Below, in pieces: positions 5,766-28,077 of a stretch of 64,000 nucleotides of DNA. Numbering within the stretch: the stretch's first letter is position 1; each line of letters begins with the position of its first letter. Made by a program: the position numbers and the translations under genes. Source of the DNA: Pseudomonadales bacterium (GTDB lineage Bacteria; Pseudomonadota; Gammaproteobacteria; Pseudomonadales; JAUIET01); contig JBGCFQ010000024.1 in the NCBI GenBank assembly GCA_045106985.1, positions 128,502-192,501 on the forward strand, written 5' to 3'. The notes under the pieces are model-generated. The model was not told the DNA's origin and made no database searches. It was given only the letters and a program-made list of their open reading frames with translations.

Positions 5766-5827
5766 GCAAATGGCCGTTCAATGGCTGAGGATATAAGTGA
5801 GTAAGTGTCGTGTTAAGTAGTAGCGGT

Positions 5828-6772: not shown

Positions 6773-7412
6773 GGTGTGCGCAGTGGTGCCTTTTCGCTCC
6801 TTTTCCAGCGGTAAACAGCGTTTAAGTGCTGCTATGACCAACGAAAGCCGCAGCTTGTTTGTTGAAGCCATGCTAGAAGATACGCTGCGCGCCTTACTGG
6901 GCAGCACACAGCTCGATCGTGTACTTGTACTGAGCAACGACAAAGCAGCAGCAGCCCTGGCGCGTGAGCTTGGCGCAGTCTGCGTGGCCGAGCCAGCGGG
7001 GACGGCTGGCCTGAATGCTGTAGTGCAGGCGACGGCAAATGAATTGAGCCCCTTTTACGACAGCTTGTTAGTGGTACACGGTGATTTGCCACTTTTGCAG
7101 ACAGCAGAAGTAGATCAGCTGATAACCGCACATAAAGAGCTTAAGCAAGCCCCAGGACTTAGCATAGTGCCTGATCGTCATGGCCAGGGCAGCAATTGCG
7201 TTCTAGTGTCACCCCCGAATGCGCTACGCTTTCATTACGGTGCGGGAAGTTTGCCAAAACATCTGGCTTTCGCCAAACAGCACGGCATACTGTCACAGAC
7301 TGTAGAACTGACCGGTGCTGGATTGGATATCGATGTGCCGGATGATCTTGCTGCTCTGCGCGCGCATGAATATTTATCTCTTGCGGTTCGCGTTTCAGCC
7401 GTATTGGAGTAG
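6762..7412 (+). CDS. cofC: 2-phospho-L-lactate/PEP guanylyltransferase
   Basis: 'AVVPFRSFSSGKQRL' and 'VVHGDLPLL' are typical of CofC/FbiD. The GTG start overlaps the cofD stop (alternative GTG at 6774). Confidence 0.75.
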   Translation: MLGKVCAVVPFRSFSSGKQRLSAAMTNESRSLFVEAMLEDTLRALLGSTQLDRVLVLSNDKAAAALARELGAVCVAEPAGTAGLNAVVQATANELSPFYDSLLVVHGDLPLLQTAEVDQLITAHKELKQAPGLSIVPDRHGQGSNCVLVSPPNALRFHYGAGSLPKHLAFAKQHGILSQTVELTGAGLDIDVPDDLAALRAHEYLSLAVRVSAVLE

Positions 7413-7423
7413 TTGGAGTTTTT

Positions 7424-9964: not shown

Positions 9965-10188
9965 AAATGTTCGCGTTCATCCGGTCAATTCTTTAGCTGA
10001 CTCTCAGACTCTGCACCATGCCCTTGTAAAAGCGCCCTCACGGCTTTGTCGGGCTAATAGTGCTCAATGTAGCTGATTACTCTCAATTCAGATTACCGGC
10101 AACACGATCAATAGAAACTCAGCGCCTGATCACGTAAGATTAACGGATAGTTAAGTTACACCGATTTGACCAAAGCGGAGATTTTCAA

Positions 10189-12586: not shown

Positions 12587-14104
12587 ATGAATACGGTAAA
12601 AAATAAACGCTTCACGGTGCCAGCCACCGACATCGAATCGCAACAAAGAAGGCCGCGCCTGCGCGTCCATCCTACGTTGCTCGCCCCACTTTTAAGTCTG
12701 TTTCTGTTCGGTCAATTCAGCCAGGCCGAAACATCTGCTCAGCAGCCCTCTGACTCGGAATCCTCATCTACTTACGTAACCGCCCCGCAACCGGAGGTGA
12801 GTGACAGCGTCAGCGATGCCAATGACCCAAGGTTTGTAAGAGACCAGTACGTGCGAGAAGTAGAGTTGTTGCAGGCACAGTACGGAGCGTACAACAGCGA
12901 GCTGGCTGAGGCCCTACAAGGGCTGGGCGAAGCTCAACAACGGCTTGGCAAACATACTGACGCTATTGAGACACTCAAACAGAGTGCTCACATCACTCGA
13001 ATTAATGAGGGCCTCTTTGCTCCAGCGATCATGCCGATGCTCAACGCCATGGTTGAAAGCTATGCGCATTTGGGCGATTGGGAAGCTGTCGATGACCAGC
13101 ATCACTTCATGATGGAAATTAACGGAGCTAACTACGGCTGGAATGACGAGCGCATGTTGCCAATATTGGACAAGCTTACTCGCTGGCATATGTTCGCGTT
13201 TTTTGAGGCGGTCTCACCAGAGCCTTCGCATCATTTGCATATGGCGAGGTCGTTGTTTTCAGCAGCTTCAAGGGTAATAGAACTCAACTTTGGTCAATAC
13301 GATTTACGCCTGGCGAAGCAGCTACGCGGGCGCCGTATTGCTGATTATTACCTGGCGAGCATTATGGCCGACGAAGCCGAAAGCCAGTTGCGCCTTGAGC
13401 GCATGCAGAGTATCGGCAGAGACGAGAACTTCCGATTCGCTCAAGGAACAAGGACAATTTCACAAGGTTATTTGTCCGGGCTGCGTAGTTCGCGCCATGT
13501 AGTCGATATTTATGAGAACAATGATTCGGCCAGACCTGAAGAAGTGGCGGAAGCGATGGCTGAGCTAGGTGATTGGTATCTCCGCTTTAATAAACGTCAA
13601 TCGGCTATACGCACCTACCTTGACGCCTATAGCTTGTTGAGTGAAAACGCAGAAACAATCGCAATTCGAGATCGGATGTTTGGCCGACCCAAGGTGCTGG
13701 ATTTCGCTACCGATTACTCAGATTACCTAACACCCGCCGGAAAAAAACTATCAACAGGTTATGTTTTACTAGAGCTGGACTTAACCAAAGCCGGGTTGGT
13801 TAGCCGGGCGCAGTTTATTGAAGAGAAGCCGGCGCAGCCTTCAATGCGTCGCCGCGCGTTGCGCGAGCTTCGTAGCCGCCGTTTCAGGCCAAGGTTTGAG
13901 GACGGGGCACCAGTGCCTACGGCGGCGCTTAAGTATCGTTATCGCTACGAATACGCAGGACCGCCGATCTCCGCTTCGAGCAGCGAGCCAAAGCAGGCTA
14001 CTCAAGTAGATAAAGCTGAAGGGACAAAGCTCGAGAATAAAGCCGCTAGCTCAAAACCTTTAAAAGATCATTCGCCCGAAGGGGATTCCGATGCCACATT
14101 GTAA
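12587..14104 (+). CDS. signal-peptide TPR-like helical protein with TonB C-terminal-like domain
   Basis: N-terminal hydrophobic segment ending 'FSQA/ET', then TPR-like helices (for example 'ELAEALQGLGEAQQRLGKHTDAIETLKQS'). The C-terminal 'GYVLLELDLTKAGLVSRAQFIEE...RFRPRFEDGAPVP..LKYRYRYEY' resembles the TonB_C beta-alpha-beta pattern. Confidence 0.45.
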   Translation: MNTVKNKRFTVPATDIESQQRRPRLRVHPTLLAPLLSLFLFGQFSQAETSAQQPSDSESSSTYVTAPQPEVSDSVSDANDPRFVRDQYVREVELLQAQYGAYNSELAEALQGLGEAQQRLGKHTDAIETLKQSAHITRINEGLFAPAIMPMLNAMVESYAHLGDWEAVDDQHHFMMEINGANYGWNDERMLPILDKLTRWHMFAFFEAVSPEPSHHLHMARSLFSAASRVIELNFGQYDLRLAKQLRGRRIADYYLASIMADEAESQLRLERMQSIGRDENFRFAQGTRTISQGYLSGLRSSRHVVDIYENNDSARPEEVAEAMAELGDWYLRFNKRQSAIRTYLDAYSLLSENAETIAIRDRMFGRPKVLDFATDYSDYLTPAGKKLSTGYVLLELDLTKAGLVSRAQFIEEKPAQPSMRRRALRELRSRRFRPRFEDGAPVPTAALKYRYRYEYAGPPISASSSEPKQATQVDKAEGTKLENKAASSKPLKDHSPEGDSDATL

Positions 14105-15101
14105 AATTAAGGTTGTAGCAATATGTGCCTTGCTGGCTGTCTCGGCCTGTAAAGAAAAAGATGAGGAACAGGGCGGTGGTTCGGCAGTGGATCAGGGCAG
14201 TGTTCAAGAGAGTCATTCAAAGCCAGAAGCAAGCGCGTCAACAGCTGAACCTGGGTGGGAAGACGAGAGAGGTGAAGGGCTACCAGGCTTAGGCCAGGGC
14301 GGCAAAAGCGATACGGGCGCGGCGCAACGAGCATCAGATGAAAGAGAGATAGGCCATCGCCTGCCGCCTGCGGCTCCGCAAGCATCAGCCGGCGCTGGAA
14401 CTGGTAACGGACCATTCGGTGGTGCTACTGAAAGTGCCTCTATACCGCTGCCGACAGTGTTCAATGACGGCGACTACGACGTTGATGCTGGCTTGGAAGA
14501 CAGTGACTTTGATGTTGGCATTTCTGTGCCAGGCATTGGCTTACCTAGTATAGGTTTGCCCGGAATGGGTTTACCGGGTGGTGGAAGTTCAGGTGGCATG
14601 GGCGCGCCTAGCGCCGGTCTGCCTGGCGGAAGTGGTGGTGTTGGCGGTTTGGATGATGCTCTTGATGCATCGTTAGAAGACTTTGATGGCGTGGTTTTGG
14701 CAGGTAAAGACGGGGCCCGTGGAATGGAGAATTCAGGTGCTGGAAGTTCATCAAGCGGAGCCGCGAGTAGTGGCAAAGGCGGTGGAAAGGGCGGCGCGTC
14801 TGGTGCCGGTGGTGGCCAGGGAGGAGGGCAATCTCGAATTCCCCCACCACCCTCTGAGTCAGAATCTTCGAGCGGCGGGTCAGGCGGCGGTGGGGAGTCA
14901 GCCAAAGGCGCGAAAGGCGGCCCTAGGGGCTCCAACTCTAAAGGAAAGCAGCCAAACCCGGCTCCAGCCGACTTACAAGATGGCGACGACGATGATCTGA
15001 TTGCGCGCCAAATTAGAGAGGCCGCTGAAAACGAAGAGGATCCTGAATTGCAGGAAAAACTTTGGGACGAATATCGTAAGTACAAGAATGGTCAACGTTA
15101 G
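14091..15101 (+). CDS. lipoprotein with long Gly/Ser/Asp-rich low-complexity region
   Basis: Lipobox 'LLAVSAC'. Repeats 'GIGLPSIGLPGMGLPGGG' and 'GGGKGGASGAGGGQGGGQ' are followed by a conserved-looking acidic C-terminal helix. The start overlaps the upstream gene by 14 nt. Confidence 0.6.
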   Translation: MPHCKIKVVAICALLAVSACKEKDEEQGGGSAVDQGSVQESHSKPEASASTAEPGWEDERGEGLPGLGQGGKSDTGAAQRASDEREIGHRLPPAAPQASAGAGTGNGPFGGATESASIPLPTVFNDGDYDVDAGLEDSDFDVGISVPGIGLPSIGLPGMGLPGGGSSGGMGAPSAGLPGGSGGVGGLDDALDASLEDFDGVVLAGKDGARGMENSGAGSSSSGAASSGKGGGKGGASGAGGGQGGGQSRIPPPPSESESSSGGSGGGGESAKGAKGGPRGSNSKGKQPNPAPADLQDGDDDDLIARQIREAAENEEDPELQEKLWDEYRKYKNGQR

Positions 15102-15191: not shown

Positions 15192-16403
15192 ATGAGTATT
15201 TCAGTTAAACGCCTGTTAAGCATCGTCGCACTGCTGCTTATGCAAGCTTGCTCTACAACAAACGTAAAAACATCAGATGTACATTTGCTGGATATGGCCC
15301 AGGAGGTGATTCCAGAACATTTACTGTTGGATGTTGGTATCAATATTTTTGATCCGGGTTTGGATTCCGCGGGAGATGATTCGAGCTTGTTTCCAGAAGT
15401 TCGTGAGGGCGAAGCCCGCTATCTGCCATTCAATTTAATGGAGACAATGCAAACGTCTGGTCATTGGGGCGCGGTCCGTGTGGTGCCATCAGAAATTGCA
15501 GCGGTTGATGTGCACGTTAATGGCAAAATACTGGAATCAGACGGTGAACGGTTATTTTTGCAACTGACCGTGTCAGACAGCACTGGTAACTTATGGTTTG
15601 ACCGTGAGTATAAGGAAGTCATTTCTGATTTCGTCTATAAGAAGCGACGGGCTGGCGAAGAGCCCTTTCAATCAATGTATAACCGCATTGCCAATGACAT
15701 CGCTAGCCACCAGGCGTCCTTAAACGTAGCGAGCAAAAACAACATACGAACGGTTGCTGAATTGCGCTTTGCCCAAGATTTTGCCCCTGACGCCTTTGGT
15801 GGTCACCTGAGTATTGATGAAGAGGGTATTCTCTCCATTAAACGCCTTCCTAGTGAAGTAGACCCAATGATGCAGCGGATTCGAAAGATCAGAGATCGCG
15901 ACTACTTGTTTGTTGATACTTTGCAGGATTACTACGGCGTTTTTCATCGGCAAATGGACGTACCTTATCTAGAATGGCGTGAGCGCAGCTACGACCATGC
16001 CGTCGCGATTAGAGAGTTGCGAAAGTCTCGCTCTATGCGCGGTATTGCAGGCGCTGCAGCAATAATAGCGGGGATCATGGCGGTTGGCGGCGGCAATGAC
16101 TATGCTCGAGCTGGTGGCGGAGTCGGCATCTGGGCTGGCAGTAGTCTGATTGGCAGCGCTTTACAAAAAGGCCAGGAATTAGGCCAGCATCAAGCTGACT
16201 TCAATGAAATTAGTGAATCGGTGATTACGGCGATTACTCCGCAGGTTATTGAGCTTGAGGATCAAACTATAACGCTGAGTGGTACTGTTAGTGATCAATA
16301 CGGGCAATGGCGAGAACTGCTGCGTGAGATCTATCGGCGAGAGAATGGGATTACCGCCGGCGATGCCAGCCTAAAATCTCCTGCTGCGAGTGATGAAGGG
16401 TAG
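15192..16403 (+). CDS. lipoprotein with C-terminal glycine-zipper segment
   Basis: Lipobox 'LLLMQAC'. A glycine-zipper-like stretch 'GIAGAAAIIAGIMAVGGGNDYARAGGGVGIWAGSSLIGSAL' lies at about nt 16041-16163. Confidence 0.55.
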   Translation: MSISVKRLLSIVALLLMQACSTTNVKTSDVHLLDMAQEVIPEHLLLDVGINIFDPGLDSAGDDSSLFPEVREGEARYLPFNLMETMQTSGHWGAVRVVPSEIAAVDVHVNGKILESDGERLFLQLTVSDSTGNLWFDREYKEVISDFVYKKRRAGEEPFQSMYNRIANDIASHQASLNVASKNNIRTVAELRFAQDFAPDAFGGHLSIDEEGILSIKRLPSEVDPMMQRIRKIRDRDYLFVDTLQDYYGVFHRQMDVPYLEWRERSYDHAVAIRELRKSRSMRGIAGAAAIIAGIMAVGGGNDYARAGGGVGIWAGSSLIGSALQKGQELGQHQADFNEISESVITAITPQVIELEDQTITLSGTVSDQYGQWRELLREIYRRENGITAGDASLKSPAASDEG

Positions 16404-16411: not shown

Positions 16412-18007
16412 ATGAGCGAACCCGGAAAGCACACAGATGCAGGAAGAACTGCGGGTACCGCAACTATCGACAGAGGCATTGGTTCGAATATTGAAAACCA
16501 CACTGAGATAGCGCCCCTCAATCTGGATTTTTCTGAACTTGACGCAGTTGACGACATAGTTGCTGGCGCCACTTTAGAGGCGGGTTCACAGAGAGCGCCG
16601 AGGTGGTTACTTGCCACAATCATTGGCTTAGTCATTGCCGCCGTAACAGTCATATTTGTGTTGCCAACCGCTTTATCTCCAGCTGACCAACTCGCTGAAC
16701 AGGATGTGGAAGCTGAAGCCATCACGGCTGACGTAGAAAAGATTGATGAGGGCTCACCTTTTCAAGAAGCCAAACTCGCGCAGCAACGTAAAAACGCGCA
16801 AGACTCGCTGGAGCAATTACTTGAGAAGCAACTCTGGCTGGAAAAACGCAACGTTCAATTGTGGGCGGATAAAGAGTACCAACGCAGTTTCGAGTTGGCT
16901 GCCGAGGGCGATGAATATTATCGTAATCGACAGTTTGAAAAGGCCAATAATCTCTATTCAGAAGGTCTGGCAATTGTTACGAATCTTTTGGAAGGTGTGC
17001 CCGATCGCATCGATCGAAATCTTAAAGCCGGATTAGAAGCATTGCTAGTCAATGATGCTGAGAACGCAGAACAGGCTTTTGTTTTAATTCAGGCGATTCA
17101 ACCAGAGCATGACGGGGCTGCAGAAGGGTTGCAACGTCTTGCGGTATTGCCGTCAGTTAGCAAAGCATTGCAATTAGCTGACCGCTATCAAACCGAGCAG
17201 CAATTGCCTAAGGCCTTGGGCGAATTGCGCACAGTCGTTGAGCTCGACCCAGTGCGCGAAAGCCTGCTGACTGAACGCATAGCTCAGTTGGAACAGGCAA
17301 TTTTGGATCGAAACTTTGAAGAACAAATGTCTCAGGGCTATCAAAGCCTGGATCAGGGGAATCGATCGGCAGCAGCCCAATTTTTTACCCAAGCGAGCAA
17401 ACTAAAGTCTGAATCTACTGAGCCAAAAAAGGCTCTAAGAATGGTGCGCAATCAGCAAGCTCTTAGTCGTATGAGCGTGCATATAGATGAAGCCCGAGTT
17501 CTGGAACGAGAAGAACAATGGGCTGATGCGGTGAAGTCTTACGATGCTGCATTATCAATTGATGCGAACTTGAGTGATGCGGCGAACCGTCGTGCCAGAG
17601 CTGTTACTCGCATGAAGATGGATCAAGCTTTGGTAACACTTAATGATGATCCGTTGCGCCTTGCCGACAACACGATATATGCAAAAGCCGCGAAAATTCA
17701 TGCGGCGGGAACTCGAGTATCTGCTGCGGGACCGAGATTGACGCAACAACTAGAATTGCTGAATAAACAGTTGCAAGCATCTCGAATTTCACTTCCAGTG
17801 CTTATTGAATCTGACGGCTTTACTCAGGTGGCGCTTAGCCGCATTGCGCGTTTGGGTGTTCTTCAGCAGAAGAATTTATCATTGATACCTGGTCGATACG
17901 TAGTAACTGGGAGCCGAGACGGCTATCGCGATGTGCGTCGCGAATTTGAGGTGCCGCAGGGCGCTAGAAATGTACGAGTGGACATTCGTTGTGTCGAGCA
18001 AATCTGA
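16412..18007 (+). CDS. bitopic inner-membrane TPR-repeat protein with C-terminal PEGA-like beta domain
   Basis: A cytoplasmic N-tail is followed by a TM helix 'WLLATIIGLVIAAVTVIFVL' and a long TPR-like helical region. The C-terminus is 'LIPGRYVVTGSRDGYRDVRREFEVPQG' (PEGA-like). Confidence 0.5.
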   Translation: MSEPGKHTDAGRTAGTATIDRGIGSNIENHTEIAPLNLDFSELDAVDDIVAGATLEAGSQRAPRWLLATIIGLVIAAVTVIFVLPTALSPADQLAEQDVEAEAITADVEKIDEGSPFQEAKLAQQRKNAQDSLEQLLEKQLWLEKRNVQLWADKEYQRSFELAAEGDEYYRNRQFEKANNLYSEGLAIVTNLLEGVPDRIDRNLKAGLEALLVNDAENAEQAFVLIQAIQPEHDGAAEGLQRLAVLPSVSKALQLADRYQTEQQLPKALGELRTVVELDPVRESLLTERIAQLEQAILDRNFEEQMSQGYQSLDQGNRSAAAQFFTQASKLKSESTEPKKALRMVRNQQALSRMSVHIDEARVLEREEQWADAVKSYDAALSIDANLSDAANRRARAVTRMKMDQALVTLNDDPLRLADNTIYAKAAKIHAAGTRVSAAGPRLTQQLELLNKQLQASRISLPVLIESDGFTQVALSRIARLGVLQQKNLSLIPGRYVVTGSRDGYRDVRREFEVPQGARNVRVDIRCVEQI

Positions 18008-20093
18008 ACAAACCGAAACAGGCCTTAGCGCTGCGCCGAATGCAACGATTATTGAACCCGTTGCATTCGAGCCAATGGGTGAGCAGGAATTCGCCGCAGG
18101 GCCCGCAGCGTTATGGCCCAAGGCACTAATAGGACTATTTTTTCTGCTTACGGCCTTGGTGTTGTTTTTTCTGTTTACGGCCCGATCCGTATTGATTGAG
18201 CCACAATACAACGGTACTGCTGTCAACAATGCGAAATTTGAGTTAAGTGGCGGAATACATCTTTGGTTTGGCGGCCGTTTCTTGGTTCGCCCTGGCGCGT
18301 TTAGCGCATCAGTAAGTCACCCAGAATACAAAACCGCCAGTCTCGGTTTTCACGTTACTCAGGAGCAACAACAAAGCGTTGTTATCGAGCTGCAGCGAAA
18401 ACCCGATGTGTTTGATGTGAGTACTACACCGCCTGAGGCCGAGGTACTTGTTGATGGAGAGCTAGTAGGCACCACACCATTGATGGGCCTGTCGATAGAA
18501 GCCGGTTCCCGCTCTCTGAGCTTGCGCCACCCTCGCTATCTGCTGGTCGAAGAAGAGCTTCAGGTTGAAGGAGGAGGTAATACTGTCGCTCGAAGTTTTA
18601 ACCTTGAGCCCGCTTGGGCCGAGGTAACTGTTGATACCTTGCCGCAAGGGGCGACAGTGTTTTCTGATGAACGCGAGATTGGTAAAACGCCGCTCACGGC
18701 AGAAGTTTTTCAAGGGCTTCGGCAACTAAGCTTCCACCTTAGTAAATTCAAAACCTCAAGCCAGGAACTGAATGTGATGGCCGGCGACGCTCTTCAGCTG
18801 GAAACAGTCGTGTTAGATCCTGCTGATGCAATGCTGGCATTGGAAAGTACGCCGCTCGACGCCGGCGTATTGGTTAATGGCGTTTACAGTGGCCAAACAC
18901 CCGTAACCGTCGCGCTGAAAGCCGATGAGAATTCTGTAGTGGAGCTGTTTAAACAAGGATATAAAAAGCAAAGTAGAGCGCTAAGCTACTCCGCCGGAGA
19001 GCAGCAGGCTTTGAACATTGCTTTATCCCCGGCTCTGGGTCTAGTGACACTGAACGTCACGCCGGTAGATTCGAGTGTTAGCATAAATGGCCGTTCGCTA
19101 AGCACAAAGCAAACCCTGTCTAAGCGACTCAGTTTACCTTCTGTACCGCAAACTTTCAGGGTAACGCGCAAAGGTTACCTACCTTTTGAAAAAACTATCA
19201 CGCCGAGGCCTGGATTTAAACAAACCTTAAACGTCACTTTGTTAACACCTGCAGCGGCTAAGGCAGCGAAGATCAAATCAGTTTTCCGAAGTGCGGGCGG
19301 CCAGCAAATGCGCTTAATTAAACCCGGCCGAATAACTATGGGTGCTTCTCGTCGCGAAGCCGGCCGTAGAGCGAATGAAAATCTCAGACCGGTTGTATTG
19401 CAAAGACCATTTTATATTTCCGCCACTGAAGTGACCAATGGCGAATACCGAAAGTTTGATTTCAAACATTCCTCCAAGCGTGTGGAAGACAAAAGCCTAA
19501 ATGCTGACGCTCAGCCAGTGGTAAGAGTAGCTTGGGTAGATGCCGCGCAGTATTGCAATTGGTTGAGTGAGCAAGAAGGCTTGGCTCTGGTGTATGAGTT
19601 TAAGGAAGGAAAACTGACAAATGTAGACCAACAGGCATCGGGTTATCGTTTACCAACTGAGGCCGAGTGGTCGTACAGTGCTAGAAAACTGGGCAAAGAA
19701 ATGCTGAAATTTCCCTGGGGCCAGGAGTGGCCAGTGCCGCCTGGTAGCGGAAACTTCGCTGACATCAAAGCGAGCTACATTTTGGGGCGAACACTTCCTC
19801 ATTATGAAGATGGATATACAGCAAGTGCTCCCGTTGGAAAATTTACGCCTAATCAGTATGAGCTTTATGACATGGGAGGAAATGTCGCTGAGTGGGTACA
19901 CGACTTTTATGCTCCAGGTCAGCCTCCAGGTTCGAAAGTGGATCCTTTCGGCCCCAAGGAGAGTAATTACCACGTCGTTCGCGGATCCTCATGGCGGCAC
20001 GGTTCACTGGTAGAGCTAAGGCTTTCTTATAGGGATTATGCAGATCGAGGACGAGATGATCTTGGTTTCAGAGTCGCTCGTTATCTGGATTAA
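17970..20093 (+). CDS. membrane-anchored protein with about 5 PEGA repeats and a C-terminal FGE-sulfatase (SUMF1-fold) domain
   Basis: TM helix 'ALIGLFFLLTALVLFFLF'. Repeats include 'VSTTPPEAEVLVDGELVGTTPL', 'VDTLPQGATVFSDEREIGKTPL', 'LESTPLDAGVLVNGVYSGQTPV' and 'LNVTPVDSSVSINGRSL'. FGE-fold motifs are 'YRLPTEAEW', 'GNVAEWV', 'VVRGSSW' and 'LGFRVAR'. The start is uncertain (ATG 17970 overlaps the upstream gene). Confidence 0.75.
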   Translation: MYEWTFVVSSKSEQTETGLSAAPNATIIEPVAFEPMGEQEFAAGPAALWPKALIGLFFLLTALVLFFLFTARSVLIEPQYNGTAVNNAKFELSGGIHLWFGGRFLVRPGAFSASVSHPEYKTASLGFHVTQEQQQSVVIELQRKPDVFDVSTTPPEAEVLVDGELVGTTPLMGLSIEAGSRSLSLRHPRYLLVEEELQVEGGGNTVARSFNLEPAWAEVTVDTLPQGATVFSDEREIGKTPLTAEVFQGLRQLSFHLSKFKTSSQELNVMAGDALQLETVVLDPADAMLALESTPLDAGVLVNGVYSGQTPVTVALKADENSVVELFKQGYKKQSRALSYSAGEQQALNIALSPALGLVTLNVTPVDSSVSINGRSLSTKQTLSKRLSLPSVPQTFRVTRKGYLPFEKTITPRPGFKQTLNVTLLTPAAAKAAKIKSVFRSAGGQQMRLIKPGRITMGASRREAGRRANENLRPVVLQRPFYISATEVTNGEYRKFDFKHSSKRVEDKSLNADAQPVVRVAWVDAAQYCNWLSEQEGLALVYEFKEGKLTNVDQQASGYRLPTEAEWSYSARKLGKEMLKFPWGQEWPVPPGSGNFADIKASYILGRTLPHYEDGYTASAPVGKFTPNQYELYDMGGNVAEWVHDFYAPGQPPGSKVDPFGPKESNYHVVRGSSWRHGSLVELRLSYRDYADRGRDDLGFRVARYLD

Positions 20094-20108: not shown

Positions 20109-20459
20109 ATGAAAAAAAATGAGCCATTGCATTCGAAAAAATCACCAACAGGAATAATTTTGTTGCTCTGCGTCGCCGTTTGCTTGCCTTTTTCCCCAAG
20201 CTACGCACAGGACGATGAGGATTTTATTATTCTTGATGACCGTGGCGAGGGTTTTGAAGCTGAAGAAGGTGATGTGCCTTTGAGTGGGCGTAAACCACGA
20301 CCGAGTAATACCTTGCCGAACCGCTCCACTGAGAGTACGGCCGGAGCGGAGAAGAGGGACCGTGAGAACGACGTGCCAGCGCCACCACCACCGGTCCGCT
20401 TCGAGCCAACAGAGCGGGTCTCAGAAGATTTATCAGTGTCGTTTCCGGCTGATATTTAA
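20109..20459 (+). CDS. small secreted acidic/Pro-rich protein
   Basis: Signal peptide 'GIILLLCVAVCLPFSPSYA/QDDED'. 116 aa, lying between operon neighbours on the same strand. Confidence 0.45.
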   Translation: MKKNEPLHSKKSPTGIILLLCVAVCLPFSPSYAQDDEDFIILDDRGEGFEAEEGDVPLSGRKPRPSNTLPNRSTESTAGAEKRDRENDVPAPPPPVRFEPTERVSEDLSVSFPADI

Positions 20460-20510: not shown

Positions 20511-21308
20511 ATGAAAAGTAACTTGAGTCGCGAATTCATGTACCAGCTAATTGCGTTATTACTAGCAATTATCGTTGTACATACCGTGTACGTAGGGCTG
20601 ATAAGGCCTAATGCCGCAGAGCTTCTCGCTCACCAAGCGCAGCTACAAGCAGACGGAGGAGCGTATGTTCCTTCAAGATCGATCTATGTGGTACTGAAAG
20701 ACTTTGAACAGGAAACCTGCTTTATATTGGCTATCTGGGCGATTGCTATCATGGGCTTTAAAGCACGCAGTATCACCGGGCAGCGCCTTATGCTGGACCG
20801 AAGTTTGCTAAATATTAGCCCTGGCACAAGCATGCTTCCGGAAGACGCCCGTGATCATTCGCGTGCCTTGCAGGCACTTCCGCAGGAAGAAAAACAGAGC
20901 CTTTTACCCAGAGCACTGCTGATAGGTCTGCAGCGCTTCGGCTCTACGCGAAGCATTCAGGACGTAGCGACGGCTATCAAAGAGGTGTGTGAGAGTGAAG
21001 CCGACAGATTGGACTCCGAACTTGCGATGGTGCGCTACATAGCGTGGGCGATCCCTTCCATAGGTTTTATTGGTACTGTGCGTGGTATTGGCGCCGCGCT
21101 GGGTCAAGCGCACCAAGCGGTGGAAGGGGATATCTCGGGAGTAACCGCTAGTTTGGGCGTGGCATTCAACTCTACGTTTATCGCTCTAGTCGTTAGTATC
21201 CTAATAATGTTCTTAATGCATCAGCTGCAATTGCTGCAAGAACGCTTGGTGTTAGACAGTCAGCAGTATTGCGATACAAACCTAATGCCGCATTTACAAG
21301 TGCACTAG
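20511..21308 (+). CDS. MotA/TolQ/ExbB proton-channel family protein
   Basis: 'WAIPSIGFIGTVRGIGAALG' and 'LGVAFNSTFIALVVSILIMFLMH' match the conserved TM2/TM3 signature of MotA_ExbB channels. The ATG at 20511 is preceded by GGAAGAG. Confidence 0.8.
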   Translation: MKSNLSREFMYQLIALLLAIIVVHTVYVGLIRPNAAELLAHQAQLQADGGAYVPSRSIYVVLKDFEQETCFILAIWAIAIMGFKARSITGQRLMLDRSLLNISPGTSMLPEDARDHSRALQALPQEEKQSLLPRALLIGLQRFGSTRSIQDVATAIKEVCESEADRLDSELAMVRYIAWAIPSIGFIGTVRGIGAALGQAHQAVEGDISGVTASLGVAFNSTFIALVVSILIMFLMHQLQLLQERLVLDSQQYCDTNLMPHLQVH

Positions 21309-21328: not shown

Positions 21329-22690
21329 ATGTATGACGCTGTAGTTGAACTGAACGATATAGATCTACCCATATGGCAAAGCGGTGACTCTTCTACATGC
21401 CCGGCGTTTGCCCTGCGTGGCGAAACAGGTCTTGTTTTTGGCCATGAGGCTCGTGACCAGGCACGGTTGCATCCTCTCAGGATTAATAGCCGGTTTATGC
21501 AGCAGCTTAGTTTGGTTGAAACGCCGGAGCTTAAACCTCATGCGCGTCATCATGCCGACTTAGCGTACCGATTTTTGCAGTTCGCTCATAGGGGCGCATC
21601 GGCGCCAGAACGTTGCGTTTTTGTTGTGCCGCCTAGCTACACTCAAGATCATATGTCTGTACTGCTTGGCGTTGTTAAACAATGCTCTTTTGACGCGGTT
21701 GGCTTGTTAGATCAAACAGTAGCAGTCGCCAGCCAAGAAGCTGCGCAGAGCAACGGTGTTTTCTGTGATCTACAGCTTCATCAGTTGGTGCTGGGCGCTT
21801 ACCACGTGGAAAATAATGACGTTGTTCGCGGTGCAACACAGAGCGTAGATCAGTTCGGTCTGCAGCCGCTCTATGAGCGATGGGTTCGATTGATAGCTCA
21901 AGCCTTTGTTAAGCAGTGTCGCTTTGATCCACTGCACGACGCAGCGATTGAGCAACAGCTGTGGTTACAACTGCCTGCTATTTTGCAAGAGCAAGCAAAT
22001 GATGAGATGTTCAAGTTTTCCTTGTTGAATAAATATTTGATCGAAATACCGCGTTCCGTAATGCTTGGGCCAGTGACGGAGTTGTTTGCACAATTGCAAC
22101 AAAGGTTGGTTTCATTCGATGGCGATAACGCAGAGTTACTATGCAGTGCTCGCTTAGCCAGCTTGCCTGGATTTCTGACGCTCGACAGTCGACTAAAAAG
22201 CGTTGCTCCAGATAGTGTTGCTAAAGCAGTAAGTAACTTTCAAAGCAAAATTTGCTCGAATACGGCTAATCTTCCGTTCGTTTGTAGATTGCCGATGGGT
22301 ACGCCGAATAACGCTGCTAATATTGCCCCAACTGCAGCCGTCAATCCGGACCCAAGTTCTAGTTCTAACGTAGTGAGGTCGGAAACTTTCGCGATTGACT
22401 ATTCAATAACGCACTTTGTATTGGACGGTGTCGCGCACCCGCTAAAGGAAAATCCATTGTTGCTGAATGGTTTGGGTGCAGCAATTGTTTGGTCGCATCG
22501 CGAAGGTAGCGTAGCGACAGCAATGGTTTCTCTTGAGGAGGGTCGTTGGAGTGTTAAGCGTCTAGATAACGCAGAGCTTTGGCTCAATGGCGAAATACTA
22601 TTGACAGAGTGCGAGGCTGTTCAAAAAGGAGACCGACTAAGTCTTGCAGAAGATGGAGCGGAGTTGAGCTTTATTAGACTCTTAGCGTGA
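21329..22690 (+). CDS. cytoplasmic Hsp70/actin-fold-like protein with degenerate nucleotide-binding loops and FHA-like C-terminus
   Basis: By-eye alignment to DnaK: 'DIDLPIWQS' vs GIDLGTTNS, 'GETGLVFGHEARDQARLHP' vs [17 protein letters not shown], 'VFVVPPSYTQDH' vs [12 protein letters not shown], and 'FCDLQLHQ' vs VYDLGGGT. The C-terminus 'WSVKRLDNAELWLNGEIL...GDRLSL...LSFIRL' is FHA-like. No TM helix or signal peptide. Confidence 0.45.
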   Translation: MYDAVVELNDIDLPIWQSGDSSTCPAFALRGETGLVFGHEARDQARLHPLRINSRFMQQLSLVETPELKPHARHHADLAYRFLQFAHRGASAPERCVFVVPPSYTQDHMSVLLGVVKQCSFDAVGLLDQTVAVASQEAAQSNGVFCDLQLHQLVLGAYHVENNDVVRGATQSVDQFGLQPLYERWVRLIAQAFVKQCRFDPLHDAAIEQQLWLQLPAILQEQANDEMFKFSLLNKYLIEIPRSVMLGPVTELFAQLQQRLVSFDGDNAELLCSARLASLPGFLTLDSRLKSVAPDSVAKAVSNFQSKICSNTANLPFVCRLPMGTPNNAANIAPTAAVNPDPSSSSNVVRSETFAIDYSITHFVLDGVAHPLKENPLLLNGLGAAIVWSHREGSVATAMVSLEEGRWSVKRLDNAELWLNGEILLTECEAVQKGDRLSLAEDGAELSFIRLLA

Positions 22691-22801: not shown

Positions 22802-23887
22802 ATGAGACGAAAAAGAAACGCGACTACCTTTAACCTTTCCTTTCTCGATGTAATGTCGTGCGGGTTTGGTGCGGTCGTGTTGATTTTTTTGATTGTGGAG
22901 CACTCTAGCAGCACTCAGTCCAACGCTGCCAACACTATGGAGCTTGCTGAAGTAAATATGTTGGAGCGCGATATAGAACTGGAAGAACGGCTATCGGCTG
23001 AAGCCCGCAATGCGCTCCGCTTGGTTGATCTCGATATTGTTGAGGTCAGTGGCGCTTCGAAGCGTTTGGTTGACGAGCTGGAAAATCTTAAGGAAGAGCT
23101 AGCGGAGGAAGATTCTGACAGCCTTGCTCGTTTGGAGCATGTCAATCAGCTCAAGACTGAAATAAAAAACCTTGAGAAAGAAATAGAACGCTTACGCTCT
23201 TCGGATGAGGTAGGACAGGGGCGCCGCTCTCGGTTTGTTCGTGGAGAAGGTGAACGCCAGTATTTAACGGGATTGAGGGTTGGAGGACGCCGGATAATGG
23301 TCTTGCTTGATACTTCGTCCAGCATGTTAGACCGTACCGTTGTAAATATATTGAGACTCAGAAATCTGTCAGACGCTAGAAAACGGCAGGCTAAAAAGTG
23401 GCAGTCTGTTGTAGGCACGATGGATTGGTTGACCGCGCAATTCCCGCAGAGCAGTCAGTTTCAAATCTATTCTTTTAATACTGAAGCCAAACCAGTGATC
23501 GCAGACACGGATGGAGAATGGCTATCAGTGAGCGACACCGACATGCTTGAAGAAGCGATGGCGGAAGTCCGTCGCTTAGTGCCCGACGGCGGCACAAGCC
23601 TCGCCAACGCCTTTGAAGCGGTAGAGGGATTCGTGAGTCTGCCCGATAATATTATTTTAATCACTGATGGTCTTCCAACACAAGACAGCAGCCCCGGCAG
23701 CGGGAAGGTAAACAGTGAGAAAAGAATGCGTTTTTTCAGTAAAGCATTGAAACACCTGCCTGGCGGAATTCCCATTAACGTTATTCTCTCACCGATGGAA
23801 GGTGATCCAGCGGCTGCGGCTGCATTTTGGAATCTTGCCGTTGTTACCGGTGGCTCGTTCCTGAGTCCCTCTAAGGATTGGCCATGA
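22802..23887 (+). CDS. ExbD/TolR-like TM anchor - coiled coil - periplasmic vWA domain protein (paralog 1)
   Basis: N-terminus 'MRRKRNATTFNLSFLDVMSCGFGAVVLIFLIV' resembles the ExbD/TolR helix with its essential Asp (nt 22847-22849). A heptad-rich E/L/K segment follows. vWA MIDAS elements are 'VLLDTSSSM', 'GGTSL' and 'ILITDG'. Confidence 0.7.
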   Translation: MRRKRNATTFNLSFLDVMSCGFGAVVLIFLIVEHSSSTQSNAANTMELAEVNMLERDIELEERLSAEARNALRLVDLDIVEVSGASKRLVDELENLKEELAEEDSDSLARLEHVNQLKTEIKNLEKEIERLRSSDEVGQGRRSRFVRGEGERQYLTGLRVGGRRIMVLLDTSSSMLDRTVVNILRLRNLSDARKRQAKKWQSVVGTMDWLTAQFPQSSQFQIYSFNTEAKPVIADTDGEWLSVSDTDMLEEAMAEVRRLVPDGGTSLANAFEAVEGFVSLPDNIILITDGLPTQDSSPGSGKVNSEKRMRFFSKALKHLPGGIPINVILSPMEGDPAAAAAFWNLAVVTGGSFLSPSKDWP

Positions 23888-24876
23888 GATTCAGAAAGCG
23901 CGGCACCGAAGACATGAACGTCGCCTTTCTTGATGTGATTTGTTGTGGCTTCGGCGCCATCATACTATTGCTGTTGATCACCAAGATCATGGATCCAGCT
24001 GCGTTGGAAGAATCCCCACAGGACCAAGAAGCCGCCATCGCGAATTTACAAGAACAACTCTTTGAAATTCGGGGTGATGCCCGCGTATTGAATCGAGATT
24101 TAAACGCCAAGCGCGAGCAGCTCTCAGAGATTAAAGATTATGTCGCACGACTTCAGGGCGAACTCAGAGTATTGAAGGGCGAATTTGATGCAACCGATGA
24201 TGACTCGGCCACCAATACTTTGTTAGCGGGCGAATTAGCAGGGGCGCGCCAGACCTTAACCGAGGAAATGCAACGTTTGCTGGGTGAATCGTCACAGCGC
24301 TCTAATGATTTGATTGGTGGTATACCTGTTGATAGCGAATATCTTATTTTTATTATTGATACTTCAGGATCTATGGTGCAATCAGCGTGGTCGCGTTTGC
24401 AGCGCGAAATTATTGCAACCTTAGATGTTTATCCAGAAGTGAAAGGCATTCAGATAATGAATGATATGGGGAATTATATGTTTACCCGGCATCGCGAAAA
24501 GTGGATGACTGATGAGCCTCACCGACGTCGCGCCATCGTTCGTTCGCTGCAGAACTGGACGCCCTTTAGTAATAGTAGCCCGGTAGAAGGGGTGGAAGCC
24601 GCCATACGGACTTTTTACGAACCCGGTAAAAAGATCAGCTTGTTTGTATACGGCGATGATTTTTCCAGTGGCTCTATTCAAAGAGTATTGCTAACCATTG
24701 ACCGAATAAACCTGGAGGTCAAAGACGGGCAGCGATTAGTTCGAATTCACGCAGTTGGTTTTCCTCATTTGATCTCCGGGCGGGGGATGAAAAGCTCTGC
24801 TTCGCGTTTTGCTGCGTTGATGCGTGAAATGAGCTACCGTAATGGCGGTAGTTTTGTTGGACTGACACCGGAATAA
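23884..24876 (+). CDS. ExbD/TolR-like TM anchor - coiled coil - periplasmic vWA domain protein (paralog 2)
   Basis: N-terminus 'MRFRKRGTEDMNVAFLDVICCGFGAIILLLLI' (Asp at nt 23932-23934), then a coiled coil and the vWA motif 'FIIDTSGSM'. ATGA start/stop overlap with paralog 1. Confidence 0.7.
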   Translation: MRFRKRGTEDMNVAFLDVICCGFGAIILLLLITKIMDPAALEESPQDQEAAIANLQEQLFEIRGDARVLNRDLNAKREQLSEIKDYVARLQGELRVLKGEFDATDDDSATNTLLAGELAGARQTLTEEMQRLLGESSQRSNDLIGGIPVDSEYLIFIIDTSGSMVQSAWSRLQREIIATLDVYPEVKGIQIMNDMGNYMFTRHREKWMTDEPHRRRAIVRSLQNWTPFSNSSPVEGVEAAIRTFYEPGKKISLFVYGDDFSSGSIQRVLLTIDRINLEVKDGQRLVRIHAVGFPHLISGRGMKSSASRFAALMREMSYRNGGSFVGLTPE

Positions 24877-24880: not shown

Positions 24881-25936
24881 ATGAATGGAGTGTCTAAGTT
24901 GTTAATGAATAGAGTACGGGGGTTTCAAGTGCGGCTTGGCTTGCTGGTTGTGGCGACATTGGCTCTGGCGGCTTGCGCCACGAGCACTGAAGTCGACGTG
25001 AAAGGCACACAGGAGTTTCCAGTGCCATTGGTTGTTAGAGCCGATTTGCACATGGGCATCTATGTTCCAGAAGAGTTCGAATCTTATGTGTACGAAGACT
25101 ACGAAAAGGTAAAGAAAAAGAAGTCCAGAAGTGAAATAAGAGCGGCTAAGAAAATAGCCAAGAAAAAGGCGGAAGATCAAAAAAAGGCTGAGCAAAAGAA
25201 AGCCGAAGAAAAGAACGCCGAGCAAAAAGAGACAGAGCAGGACAAGGTAAATAAGAAGGCAGAACCCTCTAACGACGATGACTCTGATGCAGAGCAGGAA
25301 AAAGCAGCACCGGTATTATCCCTGGCTTCCGCTGATTCCGACGCCCAATTGCAAACTGACGCCGAGGAACAAGCAGCAACAGGAAAAAACACAGCTAATG
25401 CCAACGAAAGCACTGGCTCCGGCGCTGGCAGCTCGGTTGCGTCATCCGCCTCTGCAGCGGCGAAGGATGAATTGCGCTTAAAGTTTCGTATCAGCCTGGG
25501 TGAAGCTCAGGCGAAAATGGTACGCACAGTCTTTCCTGGCGTGTTTCGCCAAACGACGATGCTAGAGTCGCTGGCGCCGGAAAATTTGCCCGACGACATC
25601 GACTTTTACCTAGTGCCGAGTATTACCAAGGTTCAGTACACTACGCCGAAAACCACAAGGTTAAACGTCTATGAGATTTGGTTGCAGTACACGTTTACGA
25701 TTTATGATCGTCGTGGTGATGTGATTACGCGCTGGCGTGTGCCGAGTTATGGGAAAACACCAACGGCCTTCATGAAGTCTAAAGAAAATGCGTTGCAGAC
25801 GGCAACACAGATGGCACTTCGCGATTGCGGGGCGGCGTTTTCTACAGGGTTTAGAACGCAACCGGCGATAGCTCGCTGGCTGCAAGCGCGAGAAAAAAAG
25901 CTCGAGATTCAAACAACTCCTAAGGTAGCAATATGA
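24881..25936 (+). CDS. lipoprotein with Lys/Glu/Ala-rich disordered linker
   Basis: Lipobox 'LALAAC'. The region 'KKKKSRSEIRAAKKIAKKKAEDQKKAEQKKAEEKNAEQKETEQDK' is followed by a folded-looking C-terminal domain. Confidence 0.55.
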   Translation: MNGVSKLLMNRVRGFQVRLGLLVVATLALAACATSTEVDVKGTQEFPVPLVVRADLHMGIYVPEEFESYVYEDYEKVKKKKSRSEIRAAKKIAKKKAEDQKKAEQKKAEEKNAEQKETEQDKVNKKAEPSNDDDSDAEQEKAAPVLSLASADSDAQLQTDAEEQAATGKNTANANESTGSGAGSSVASSASAAAKDELRLKFRISLGEAQAKMVRTVFPGVFRQTTMLESLAPENLPDDIDFYLVPSITKVQYTTPKTTRLNVYEIWLQYTFTIYDRRGDVITRWRVPSYGKTPTAFMKSKENALQTATQMALRDCGAAFSTGFRTQPAIARWLQAREKKLEIQTTPKVAI

Positions 25937-26595
25937 AGCCTACTTACTTAGTAAAGAAACTCATGCTGGTAGTGCTATTGGTGCTCTCAACGGCCTGTAC
26001 CACCACAACGATTGACGAGTACCGACAAGAAGGCGTTGACCTGGTGGCTGGACGCTCTGTTGTCGTGTTGGGTCGCCGGCATACCAGTGGCGCTGTTACC
26101 GAGCCTTTTGTTACTTCCTGCATCTCATCGCAATTAGGCCGTGGAAAGAATCCCATCAGTGTGATTGGCGAGCAAGATTTTCAAGACAGATTGTACCCCT
26201 GGTTTGAGCCTAGAACCGCGCCTTTGCAACTCTCGCGATTGAAAACAGTATTAGCTAAGCCAATCATTGCCAATGAGATTAAGAATATGGGCCTGCAGTA
26301 CATTGTTTGGGTTGACGGCAGCACGCAACGAGGAGCAAGCGCCGGTGGAATGTCTTGTTCTATAGGCGTTGGTGGTGCAGGGTGTCTTGGCTTTGGCACT
26401 TGGGAAGATGATGGTGAGTATGAGCTTTCCGTTTGGGATATTTCGCAAGACAAACCGGTTGCTGAAATGAGCGCCAGCGCGGCGGGCGTTTCTTATATGC
26501 CGGCGGTTGTAGTACCGTTGCCACTAATCGCTCGAGTGAAAACCTCGGTCTGTAACGGCTTGGCACAACAGATCAAGCAGTTGTTTCCTGAATAG
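25933..26595 (+). CDS. lipoprotein, unknown function
   Basis: Lipobox 'LVLSTAC'. ATGA overlap with the upstream gene. 220 aa. Confidence 0.55.
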   Translation: MKPTYLVKKLMLVVLLVLSTACTTTTIDEYRQEGVDLVAGRSVVVLGRRHTSGAVTEPFVTSCISSQLGRGKNPISVIGEQDFQDRLYPWFEPRTAPLQLSRLKTVLAKPIIANEIKNMGLQYIVWVDGSTQRGASAGGMSCSIGVGGAGCLGFGTWEDDGEYELSVWDISQDKPVAEMSASAAGVSYMPAVVVPLPLIARVKTSVCNGLAQQIKQLFPE

Positions 26596-26604: not shown

Positions 26605-28077
26605 ATGACTTCCCCAACGTCTTTGATTCATTTCTTACTTATAGCCCTCTTGGCTTGCGGAACCCTTTGGTCCGATGACGCTCTGGCGATGTCGGAGAAA
26701 AAAGCGATAAAAATTGGTAAGAAAGCGTATGAGCAAATCATCAACAAAAACCCGCCATACCCCGACGAAGAATTGCAAGCTTATGTTCGAGACATCGGAA
26801 ACAGACTGGCCTCTCACAGTGATTTAGCCGACAAACCCTGGCGCTTCACGGTGCTTGATGACCCCGCCATAAACGCGTTCGTTACACCTGGTTATTTCGT
26901 TTACGTGAATACCGGACTATTGACCTACATCCAATCCGAAGCGCAGCTAGCGGGCGTTATAGGTCATGAAATTGGTCACCTTGTGCGTAAGCACCCTGAC
27001 AGGCAGTCGACAGCCAATGGTTGGACCAAAGCGCTATCAACGATTGCTACGGTTTTGGTCGGTGTAACAACCGGCAGTGGTCAAGCTGCGAGCGGCGCGA
27101 ATCAGTTGGGCTCCTTAGCTGGCACCGCACTCGTTCGAGGTTACGGTCGAGATATGGAGTTGGAGGCTGACGAAGAAGGAGCGAAATACTTATTGGCCGC
27201 GGGTTATCCTCCGGAGGCCATGGTGGATGTGATCGCGGTGCTTAAGGATCAGGAGCGCTTTGCGCGGTTAAAGGCAAAAGAGAAGGGCGCTAGACCCATC
27301 GCCTACCATGGCGTGTTTTCCACTCATCCTCGCAACGACAAGCGATTACAAAATGCCGTTCGAGCTGTGGGCAGTCTGGACGAAGGCGTAGTTGAGCGCG
27401 GCCTGGACGGTGATTTTGAAGAGCATATGGAGGGTTTTAAATTCCTCAACACGCCACTGATATTCCGAACGACTGGCAGTCGCTATCTCAATCGGCCAAT
27501 GGATTTCACCCTGGCGTTTCCAAGCGGTTGGTCGATTAAGTCTAAGGGCTCTGTAATCCAGGCGAAAGGTGAAGGTGGCAAGGCGGTTATCCAAATGCGG
27601 ATCAAAAAGCTGGAGGAAGAAATAACGCCAGAAAAGTATCTTCGCGAAGTTCGGAATTTTAAAACGCTTGAAAATGGCGAGTCTCTGGATAATGAACATA
27701 TTAAGGGTTATTCGGCTATTGTTCCTGCAAACTCAAAATATCCGGCCCGAAGAATCGCTGTCATATTCCACAAGAAAAGGGCCTTCTTGTTCGTTGCTCA
27801 GCTCACCGACCCCAGTATCCCCGAAGCCTTGGCCAGCTTTTATGACACACTTTTTATGGCGAGTTTCTGGAGTTTCAGACCTCTAAACGAATACGATCGG
27901 TCAATTGCCTTATCGCGGCACATTAGTTGGTATCAAGCAGAGCAGGGCGTAAGCTTTGAAGCGCTCGCTGCAGCAAGCCCGATTAAGGAGTTTGCTGAAG
28001 AAGAGCTTCGCTTGATGAATGGCTATTACCCTTATGGCGAGCCTAAAGCAGGAGAATGGCTAAAAATTGTTCGCTAA
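26605..28077 (+). CDS. M48 family zinc metallopeptidase (probable lipoprotein)
   Basis: 'GHEIGHLVRKH' HExxH at nt 26965-26979, a downstream 'ELEADEEGAKYLLAAGYPPEAM', and a possible lipobox 'ALLAC'. AGGAG lies upstream of the ATG. Confidence 0.8.
   Translation: MTSPTSLIHFLLIALLACGTLWSDDALAMSEKKAIKIGKKAYEQIINKNPPYPDEELQAYVRDIGNRLASHSDLADKPWRFTVLDDPAINAFVTPGYFVYVNTGLLTYIQSEAQLAGVIGHEIGHLVRKHPDRQSTANGWTKALSTIATVLVGVTTGSGQAASGANQLGSLAGTALVRGYGRDMELEADEEGAKYLLAAGYPPEAMVDVIAVLKDQERFARLKAKEKGARPIAYHGVFSTHPRNDKRLQNAVRAVGSLDEGVVERGLDGDFEEHMEGFKFLNTPLIFRTTGSRYLNRPMDFTLAFPSGWSIKSKGSVIQAKGEGGKAVIQMRIKKLEEEITPEKYLREVRNFKTLENGESLDNEHIKGYSAIVPANSKYPARRIAVIFHKKRAFLFVAQLTDPSIPEALASFYDTLFMASFWSFRPLNEYDRSIALSRHISWYQAEQGVSFEALAAASPIKEFAEEELRLMNGYYPYGEPKAGEWLKIVR

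Follow-up and report, generated by a model that had tools for sequence, protein, structure and literature searches.

We analyzed a 64,000-nucleotide stretch of the genome of a Pseudomonadales bacterium (assembly GCA_045106985.1, contig JBGCFQ010000024.1, positions 128,502 to 192,501), which we refer to as the window. It contains two adjacent genes, here called vWA1 and vWA2, that encode paralogous proteins with a transmembrane (TM) helix, a stalk, and a von Willebrand factor type A (vWA) domain. A preliminary description, made from the sequence alone, had proposed that these proteins could be the two inner subunits of a 5:2 motor (five outer subunits and two inner subunits), with the outer pentamer encoded by the MotA/ExbB-like gene upstream.

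The vWA pair and the adjacent channel gene

The features of the pair and the channel gene are as follows (MIDAS, metal ion-dependent adhesion site).

22802-23887 (+): vWA1, 361 amino acids; a basic tail, an Asp-bearing TM helix, a heptad stalk, and a predicted periplasmic vWA domain with a complete MIDAS (DTSSSM, DGGTSL, LITDG)
22829-22897 (+): TM helix of vWA1, from hydropathy, FNLSFLDVMSCGFGAVVLIFLIV; the codon for Asp16 is at 22847-22849
22934-23221 (+): heptad (coiled-coil-like) periplasmic stalk of vWA1, residues ~45-140; 44% charged, no Pro
23309-23326 (+): MIDAS motif DxSxS of vWA1 (DTSSSM), conserved in orthologues
23884-24876 (+): vWA2, 330 amino acids; a paralogue with a TM motif and stalk like those of vWA1 and a divergent vWA domain (DTSGSM, SNSSP, GDDF)
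23914-23982 (+): TM helix of vWA2, from hydropathy, MNVAFLDVICCGFGAIILLLLIT; the codon for Asp17 is at 23932-23934
24358-24375 (+): MIDAS motif DxSxS of vWA2 (DTSGSM), conserved in orthologues
20511-21308 (+): MotA/ExbB/TolQ-like channel subunit, 265 amino acids (alternative TTG start at 20499), with four hydrophobic segments
21075-21077 and 21174-21176 (+): codons for the channel's pore threonines, T189 and T222, from alignment with TolQ and ExbB of E. coli

The list of open reading frames (ORFs) and the sequence bear out the coordinates, the exact N-termini, and the overlap of the two vWA genes. The genes are on the same strand and the stop codon of vWA1 overlaps the start codon of vWA2 in an ATGA, so they appear to be translationally coupled. 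Each protein has just one hydrophobic helix by hydropathy (residues 10-32 of vWA1 and 11-33 of vWA2), and because this helix is preceded by a basic tail, both proteins are predicted to be N-in. An Asp is the seventh residue of each helix, close to the cytoplasmic end, and TolR and ExbD likewise have an Asp in this part of the TM helix. The preliminary description had made its proposal depend on the conservation of this Asp in orthologues. Asp16 is invariant in 44/44 aligned orthologues of vWA1, Asp17 is invariant in 48/48 aligned orthologues of vWA2, and the Asp is kept in essentially all of the full-length family members that we inspected. More broadly, the two paralogues share the TM motif [S/A]-F-L-D-x-x-x-C-G-[F/L]-G-A, with no His within either TM helix and no SHLS motif. 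By BLASTP, vWA1 and vWA2 are 28% identical (E = 9e-10), and the similarity is detectable only over residues 3-176, a span that takes in the TM helix, the stalk, and the DxSxS-bearing first strand.

Both proteins seem to end in a vWA domain, as the preliminary description had it. For vWA1, the Pfam models VWA_2 and VWA_3 match at around 1e-7. vWA2 falls below the Pfam threshold (E = 0.12 for VWA_2), so we turned to an AlphaFold2 model of the monomer, built on 48 orthologues. Its C-terminal domain has a predicted local distance difference test score (pLDDT) of 80-90, and Foldseek matched it to the VWA domains of integrins (I-domains), ITIH1, CMG2, and CLCA1, with E-values from 7e-7 to 1e-5 and TMt of up to 0.76. 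At the level of this model, the vWA fold of the C-terminal domain of vWA2 is confirmed.

The two MIDAS sites differ. Among 44 diverse orthologues of vWA1, there is no variation at F14, D16, G23, L27, S172, or D289, conservation of D170 and S174 is 90% or higher, and the MIDAS elements DTSSS, GGTSL, and TDG are all conserved. In vWA2, the invariant residues among 48 orthologues are D17, D159, T160, S161, S163, S229-P233, and D258. The preliminary description had reported GGTSL and ITDG in both proteins, which is correct for vWA1 only: vWA2 has the invariant elements SNSSP and GDDF at those places. Because these, the first of them Ser-rich, replace the canonical Thr and Asp elements, the MIDAS of vWA2 is a variant, and its binding of a metal ion is putative.

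Between the TM helix and the vWA domain lies a heptad-like stalk of about 100 residues, in line with the preliminary description. The stalks (approximately residues 45-140) are proline-poor, and 42-44% of their residues are charged. A Fourier test found a hydrophobic period of 3.50 residues in the stalk of vWA1, which was matched by 0 of 500 shuffles, while the stalk of vWA2 has harmonics at 3.5 and 2.33, which 16 of 500 shuffles reached. This test is weak because our control, a globular vWA domain, also peaks near 3.5. The divergence between the stalks of vWA1 and vWA2 is paralogue-specific.

As had been claimed, the channel gene is the only MotA/ExbB-like gene upstream of the pair, and just one ORF (21329-22690, which we call H) lies in between. 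The channel protein matches PF01618 (2.3e-15, or 56.9 bits with a cut-off of 22.9), and apart from it there is no homologue of TolQ, ExbB, TolR, or ExbD within the 64-kb window. Its T189 and T222 align with T145 and T178 of TolQ and with T148 and T181 of ExbB, and both threonines are 100% conserved in 50 aligned family sequences (the window's and 49 orthologues). An additional N-terminal hydrophobic segment (residues ~9-35) precedes the segment that aligns with TM1 of TolQ, which gives a MotA-like topology of four segments. A single-sequence phmmer search of the channel protein against PDB found no match. When we used phmmer to compare TolR and ExbD from E. coli (taken from NC_000913.3) to all ORFs of the window and of 83 related loci, there were no matches, so the channel gene has no conventional B-type (inner subunit) partner nearby.

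Family distribution and gene order

The pair belongs to a large family. At 50% identity, we found 299 representative clusters of vWA1 at E ≤ 1e-30 and 754 at E ≤ 1e-10. A search for the back-translated TM motif (Dx[MI]xCGFGA[VI]) gave at least 600 matches in metagenomes, and 586 of the 600 that were listed encode relatives. Orthologues of vWA2 are 58-64% identical to vWA2. The carriers that could be named include Parahaliea, Parahalioglobus, and Halioglobus (all Halieaceae), the Cellvibrionaceae, and the Steroidobacteraceae; the annotation of the window's own protein places it in a metagenome-assembled genome of the Pseudomonadales. The architecture of vWA1 and vWA2 is real, and it is widespread among marine bacteria.

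The gene order (channel, H, vWA1, vWA2) is constant in 80 metagenome loci and in several genome loci. If we count only the loci with enough flanking sequence, vWA2 is directly after vWA1 in 59 of 59 loci, the channel gene adjoins the pair in 44 of 45, and H is present in 52 of 54. In another lineage (loci L087 and L088), the channel gene abuts the pair directly and H is absent. The arrangement is also found in a distant system whose vWA1 is just 31% identical to the window's, in a context that resembles the PVC group (Planctomycetes, Verrucomicrobia, and Chlamydiae). This system keeps a PEGA protein, a MotA_ExbB protein, a homologue of H (at 99.5% probability from hhalign), vWA1, and a vWA2-like gene that carries SFMDCICCGFGA and VIDVTGSM.

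Because vWA1 and vWA2 are obligately found together and appear to be translationally coupled, we infer that their products form a heterodimer. Alternatively, both proteins could have the same role in separate homodimeric assemblies (five channel subunits with two copies of vWA1, or five with two copies of vWA2), which would give two species of motor with different heads. The TM motif is nearly identical in the two paralogues, so either could pair with itself, and to our knowledge, all of the B subunits with known structures (MotB, ExbD, TolR, and GldM) are homodimers. Against this, the genes co-occur in 59/59 loci and overlap in the ATGA, their stalks have diverged in a paralogue-specific way, and a published survey of such genes found them predominantly as heterologous pairs (PMC12204202). 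We consider separate homodimers to be unlikely.

A putative motor with vWA-bearing inner subunits

In our view, the two vWA proteins are likely to be the B-type (inner) subunits in a 5:2 motor that is driven by the proton-motive force (PMF), with the product of 20511-21308 as the outer pentamer. This reading is supported by the invariant Asp in the TM helix, by the linkage to a channel gene that encodes both pore threonines, by the absence of tolR or exbD, and by the coupling of the two vWA genes. The retention of a core of MotA, H, vWA1, and vWA2 in the system with 31% identity is additional support.

Several results weigh against it, and most of these concern the relationship of the pair to ExbD and TolR. 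The preliminary description suggested testing the N-termini against the ExbD model, and we found no match to PF02472 from the full vWA proteins (E ≤ 1) or from 40 N-terminal segments (E ≤ 10). Sequence and profile searches of PDB with the N-terminal region (phmmer and a profile search) found no chain of ExbD, TolR, or MotB. When we used hhalign to compare the N-terminal profile to TolR and ExbD from E. coli, the probabilities were only 0.3-1.4%, over 7-8 columns. The best local alignment does place LSFLDVM on VPLLDVL and TPFIDVML, and hence the Asp on D23 of TolR and D25 of ExbD, as had been proposed, at that same low probability. The claim that the N-termini reproduce the ExbD/TolR pattern fails: the spacing ahead of the Asp is one residue shorter than in ExbD's N-x-x-P-x-x-D-V, and the pattern in this family is N/S-x-x-F-L-D-V, whose first position is Ser in 169 and Asn in 145 of 358 sequences, so the Asn is not conserved. 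Also, the channel has a Val where E176 of ExbB or E173 of TolQ would be, and the TM helix and stalk were modelled at low confidence in the AlphaFold2 monomer of vWA2.

Neither vWA1 nor vWA2 has the periplasmic alpha/beta domain of ExbD and TolR; the coiled coil and the vWA domain are found in its place. Similarly, the pair has no Pfam match to the C-terminal OmpA-like peptidoglycan-binding domain of MotB and PomB. Because all of the sequence-based tests (Pfam, profiles against PDB, and hhalign) were negative or non-significant, we do not consider membership in the ExbD/TolR family to be established, and the likeness of vWA1 and vWA2 to ExbD and TolR remains an analogy of position and putative function. 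For the idea that the pair supplies the two inner subunits, with vWA heads on a stalk, this means that the demonstration of homology drops out, while the invariant Asp, the linkage to the channel, the lack of tolR and exbD, the coupling of the genes, and a published prediction (see below) speak for it.

The lack of a link to ExbD or TolR, by hidden Markov model or by profile, also raises the question of whether these are ordinary membrane-anchored vWA proteins, such as periplasmic scaffolds like BatA and BatB. The channel would then work alone or with a TolR or ExbD that is encoded elsewhere. TM-anchored vWA proteins are common in bacteria. But a mere anchor would not be expected to retain an invariant buried Asp and a CGFGA face across both paralogues and in lineages where identity falls to 31%. 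The pair and the channel gene lie close together, none of the 83 loci has a B-type gene, and the MoxR and DUF58 partners that are typical of Bat operons are absent from the Pfam results for the cluster. An anchoring role seems quite unlikely to us.

The preliminary description did not recognize this architecture among the known stator partners, but it was out of date in this respect. A recent study (Mol Biol Evol 2025;42(6):msaf138; PMC12204202) predicts the same architecture: "TPH-vWA" proteins that are paired with TolQ-like pentamers (its Fig. 4c,d, with Idiomarina loihiensis as the reference species). According to that study, TMH-tethered vWA proteins co-occur tightly with tolQ homologues, without tolR or exbD; they have a conserved Asp and lack the SHLS motif; and they are predominantly found as heterologous pairs, in Proteobacteria and Verrucomicrobia. 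Its AlphaFold 3 models, which are in silico predictions, put both Asp residues inside the pentamer's ring of Thr. The pair in the window fits every descriptor of TPH-vWA, and we assign it to that class from the described features rather than from a sequence alignment. It has an N-terminal TM helix with an Asp and without SHLS or His, and a C-terminal vWA fold; it is a heterologous pair; and it is linked to a tolQ/MotA_ExbB gene with no tolR, exbD, or motB. The Thr ring and the distribution across Proteobacteria and a PVC-like lineage are shared as well, and we see no qualitative difference from the class.

In other words, the central proposal of the preliminary description was right in substance and had already been published as a prediction. 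As the core idea is in the literature, the value of the window lies in confirmation from another lineage and in a parts list, rather than in discovery. The text of PMC12204202 is silent about the neighbours (PEGA/GldK-like, TPR, and TonB_C proteins, lipoproteins, an M48 protease, and a protein with Hsp70 nucleotide-binding-domain (NBD)-like and FHA-like domains), and the wider set of genes, along with the Hsp70-NBD/FHA partner, usefully adds to it. In our literature search, no other paper that we found mentions inner subunits of the vWA type; a paper on the diversity of MotAB does not mention vWA partners, and searches that combined PEGA, FGE-sulfatase, and MotA gave nothing relevant.

PMC12204202 also describes a first vWA family, which raises the alternative that our proteins are force transducers like TolA or TonB, with the TM helix bound to the exterior of the pentamer. 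That family likewise combines a vWA head with a linker and a TM helix, and is found beside tolQ-like genes. In its members, however, the His of an SHLS motif is essential, the linker is disordered and rich in Pro, and there are tolR-like genes as separate genes, whereas the helices in the window carry Asp and no His, the linker is a heptad helix without Pro, and there is no tolR-like gene. We view a transducer of this kind as very unlikely.

In the motor that we propose, each vWA protein would be N-in, and its single TM helix (a "transpore helix") would enter the pore of the pentamer. The invariant Asp (D16 or D17) would have the role of D23 in TolR, D25 in ExbD, or D32 in MotB. It would be protonated and deprotonated against the ring of channel threonines (T189 and T222), and the flow of protons would turn the pentamer relative to the dimer, by rotation or displacement. 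The dimer, which is most likely vWA1:vWA2, would form a stalk, a coiled coil of ~100 residues. At full extension, this stalk would be ~15 nm long and could reach towards the peptidoglycan and the outer membrane. At its end would be two non-identical vWA heads, whose MIDAS sites might bind an acidic residue of a partner in the periplasm or outer membrane. Energy from the inner membrane would be passed directly through the axle, with no side-arm of the TonB/TolA type. This partner is probably a product of the same cluster, and the candidates are the lipoproteins, the M48 protease, the PEGA/GldK-like protein, and the proteins with TPR or TonB_C domains. H, which is cytoplasmic, probably docks on the cytoplasmic face of the motor or regulates it.

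This motor would share parts of its design with known ones. As in ExbB-ExbD and TolQ-TolR, there is a channel of the MotA_ExbB family with both pore threonines, a single-pass N-in partner with an Asp, and a presumed output of force in the periplasm. The differences are that the partners have no detectable homology to ExbD or TolR, and have a coiled coil of ~100 amino acids and a vWA head instead of their periplasmic domain; that there are two different partners instead of a homodimer; that no SHLS side-arm of the TonB or TolA type is evident; and that the channel has the extra N-terminal hydrophobic segment and lacks the E176 of ExbB. The four-segment topology of the channel and the TM Asp of the partner are reminiscent of MotA-MotB and PomA-PomB, but the pair has no OmpA-like domain and no recognizable plug helix, and there are no flagellar genes nearby.

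The 5:2 motors deliver their energy either through a side-arm (TonB or TolA) or by an axle that is anchored to the cell wall (MotB). If our reading is correct, this family would use a third route, in which the axle itself bears two different ligand-binding heads. Because the family is present in cultured Halieaceae (Parahaliea and Halioglobus), genetic studies should be feasible.

The surrounding envelope cluster

The pair is embedded in a conserved cluster of 12-13 co-directional genes, most of which are predicted to encode envelope proteins. The flanks outside the cluster vary between genomes. Besides the pair and the channel gene, the window's cluster includes the genes below.

12587-14104 (+): secreted TPR protein with a C-terminal TonB_C-like domain (Pfam TPR_12, 4e-8; TonB_C, 0.0012); first gene of the cluster; conserved in synteny
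14091-15101 (+): lipoprotein rich in Gly, Ser, and acidic residues (lipobox LAVSAC); synteny
15192-16403 (+): 403-amino-acid lipoprotein with a C-terminal segment like a Gly zipper; conserved
16412-18007 (+): TM-anchored TPR protein (TM segment at 66-84; TPR_2, 2e-7); synteny
17931-20093 (+): TM-anchored protein with four PEGA repeats and a GldK-like FGE-sulfatase domain; the start is uncertain (candidates at 17970, 17991, and 18075)
20109-20459 (+): small secreted acidic protein, 116 amino acids here and ~75-80 in orthologues
21329-22690 (+): H, a predicted cytoplasmic protein of 453 amino acids, between the channel gene and the pair; no TM segment
24881-25936 (+): lipoprotein with a K/E-rich linker; synteny
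25933-26595 (+): 220-amino-acid lipoprotein with conserved cysteines (from the ORF call and conservation)
26605-28077 (+): secreted M48 (BepA-like) metalloprotease (PF01435, 2.2e-36; NCBIfam BepA, 7.5e-31, which is below the cut-off); synteny; last gene of the cluster in most loci

The TonB_C domain is also present in another orthologue of the first protein (locus L003). Profile searches of PDB with the 220- and 403-amino-acid lipoproteins gave no relative. A 203-amino-acid antisense ORF (14474-15085, - strand) lies inside the gene for the Gly/Ser/Pro-rich lipoprotein (14091-15101, + strand) and is most likely a compositional artefact of this low-complexity sequence.

The product of 17931-20093, whose synteny is conserved, has strong matches to the Pfam domains FGE-sulfatase (4.7e-42) and PEGA (7.5e-37). 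Its best match in NCBIfam is to GldK/PorK, at 9e-38 but with 130.6 bits, where the cut-off is 350. It has no Cys at what we take to be the catalytic positions of the formylglycine-generating enzyme (FGE). The motor genes invariably follow closely after this gene, an order reminiscent of gldK-gldL-gldM.

H has no match in Pfam. Its AlphaFold2 model has a pLDDT of 91.5, and the N-terminal part is predicted to have the fold of the nucleotide-binding domains of Hsp70 and actin (Foldseek E of ~1e-14 to the NBDs of DnaK/Hsp70). The phosphate loops appear degenerate, with conserved ELND and DLQLHQ replacing the glycine-rich loops. A disordered linker (329-356) is followed by a C-terminal beta-sandwich that resembles FHA domains and has weak profile matches to those of EssC, KIF13B, and Rad53. 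H evolves fast.

These neighbours suggest a wider, tentative picture, which we consider possible but less likely than not. In it, the pair and the channel would serve as the engine of a machine with 12-13 genes that spans the envelope and is driven by the PMF; it would belong to marine Gammaproteobacteria and have relatives in a lineage like the PVC group. The axle with its two different MIDAS heads would engage an assembly of the GldK-like PEGA/FGE-sulfatase protein and outer-membrane lipoproteins; the M48 protease would process or clear a substrate; and H would gate the motor, possibly by recognizing phospho-threonine. The output might be a new kind of work at the outer membrane (movement or release of surface proteins, or remodelling of the envelope) rather than nutrient import or cell division. 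Whatever the layout, the conserved neighbours supply specific candidates, both for the target that the heads would pull and for the control of the motor: the lipoproteins, the M48 protease, the GldK-like PEGA protein, the Hsp70-NBD/FHA protein, and the proteins with TPR or TonB_C domains.

The logic of such a machine would resemble that of two known systems: GldKLMN of type IX secretion, and Agl-Glt of Myxococcus. In type IX secretion and gliding, GldL-GldM (with GldK and GldN) is also a motor of the 5:2 type, its inner dimer forms a long periplasmic shaft towards an outer-membrane assembly, and the motor genes are preceded by one for an FGE-sulfatase (GldK-like) protein. But the channel in the window belongs to PF01618, not to GldL, and the shaft is a coiled coil with a vWA domain instead of GldM domains. 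The PEGA protein is TM-anchored and far below the cut-off for GldK, so that only the FGE-sulfatase domain is common to both; and there is no GldN here, in a gammaproteobacterial host. The motor of Agl-Glt has the ordinary, TolR-like AglQ/S subunits, and its vWA protein, CglB, is a separate adhesin, an outer-membrane lipoprotein. What Agl-Glt shares with the window is that one envelope-spanning system unites a TolQ/R-type motor with a vWA protein, lipoproteins, and proteins of the TPR and TonB_C kinds (PMC9946355).

Another kind of machine with a MotA-like motor is Zorya, an anti-phage defence system in which the motor acts as a sensor. The channel protein has weak matches to ZorA (PADLOC, E = 0.004, 14 bits; NCBIfam, E = 0.15), and in one genome the cluster is duplicated and is flanked by insertion sequences (IS) and an integrase. 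On the other hand, no ZorB, ZorC, ZorD, or other PADLOC model matched, there are no nuclease or helicase effectors, all of the products except for H are predicted to be envelope proteins, and the gene order is conserved over many marine lineages. A Zorya-like function is extremely unlikely in our view. We rejected a defence system in general, as PADLOC returned only noise-level matches to coiled coils and to ZorA.

The duplicated cluster is that of L087 and L088, which are two near-identical copies in one assembly, on contigs of 0.85 Mb and 3.96 Mb, with the vWA1 homologue at 10001-11089 in each. IS transposases (rve/DDE), an integrase, and a HigB toxin lie on the flanks of these copies, which suggests a recent duplication or mobility of the cluster. 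In L087, a bona fide gene of the HSP70/MreB type lies upstream, on the opposite strand.

Elsewhere in the window, and unrelated to the vWA pair, is a complete set of genes for coenzyme F420 (4260-9964, + strand) in a gammaproteobacterial context. The set comprises an F420-dependent NADP oxidoreductase, the ligase CofE, CofD, CofC, and FbiC as a fused two-domain radical-SAM protein, and it is followed by malate synthase G (10189-12360).

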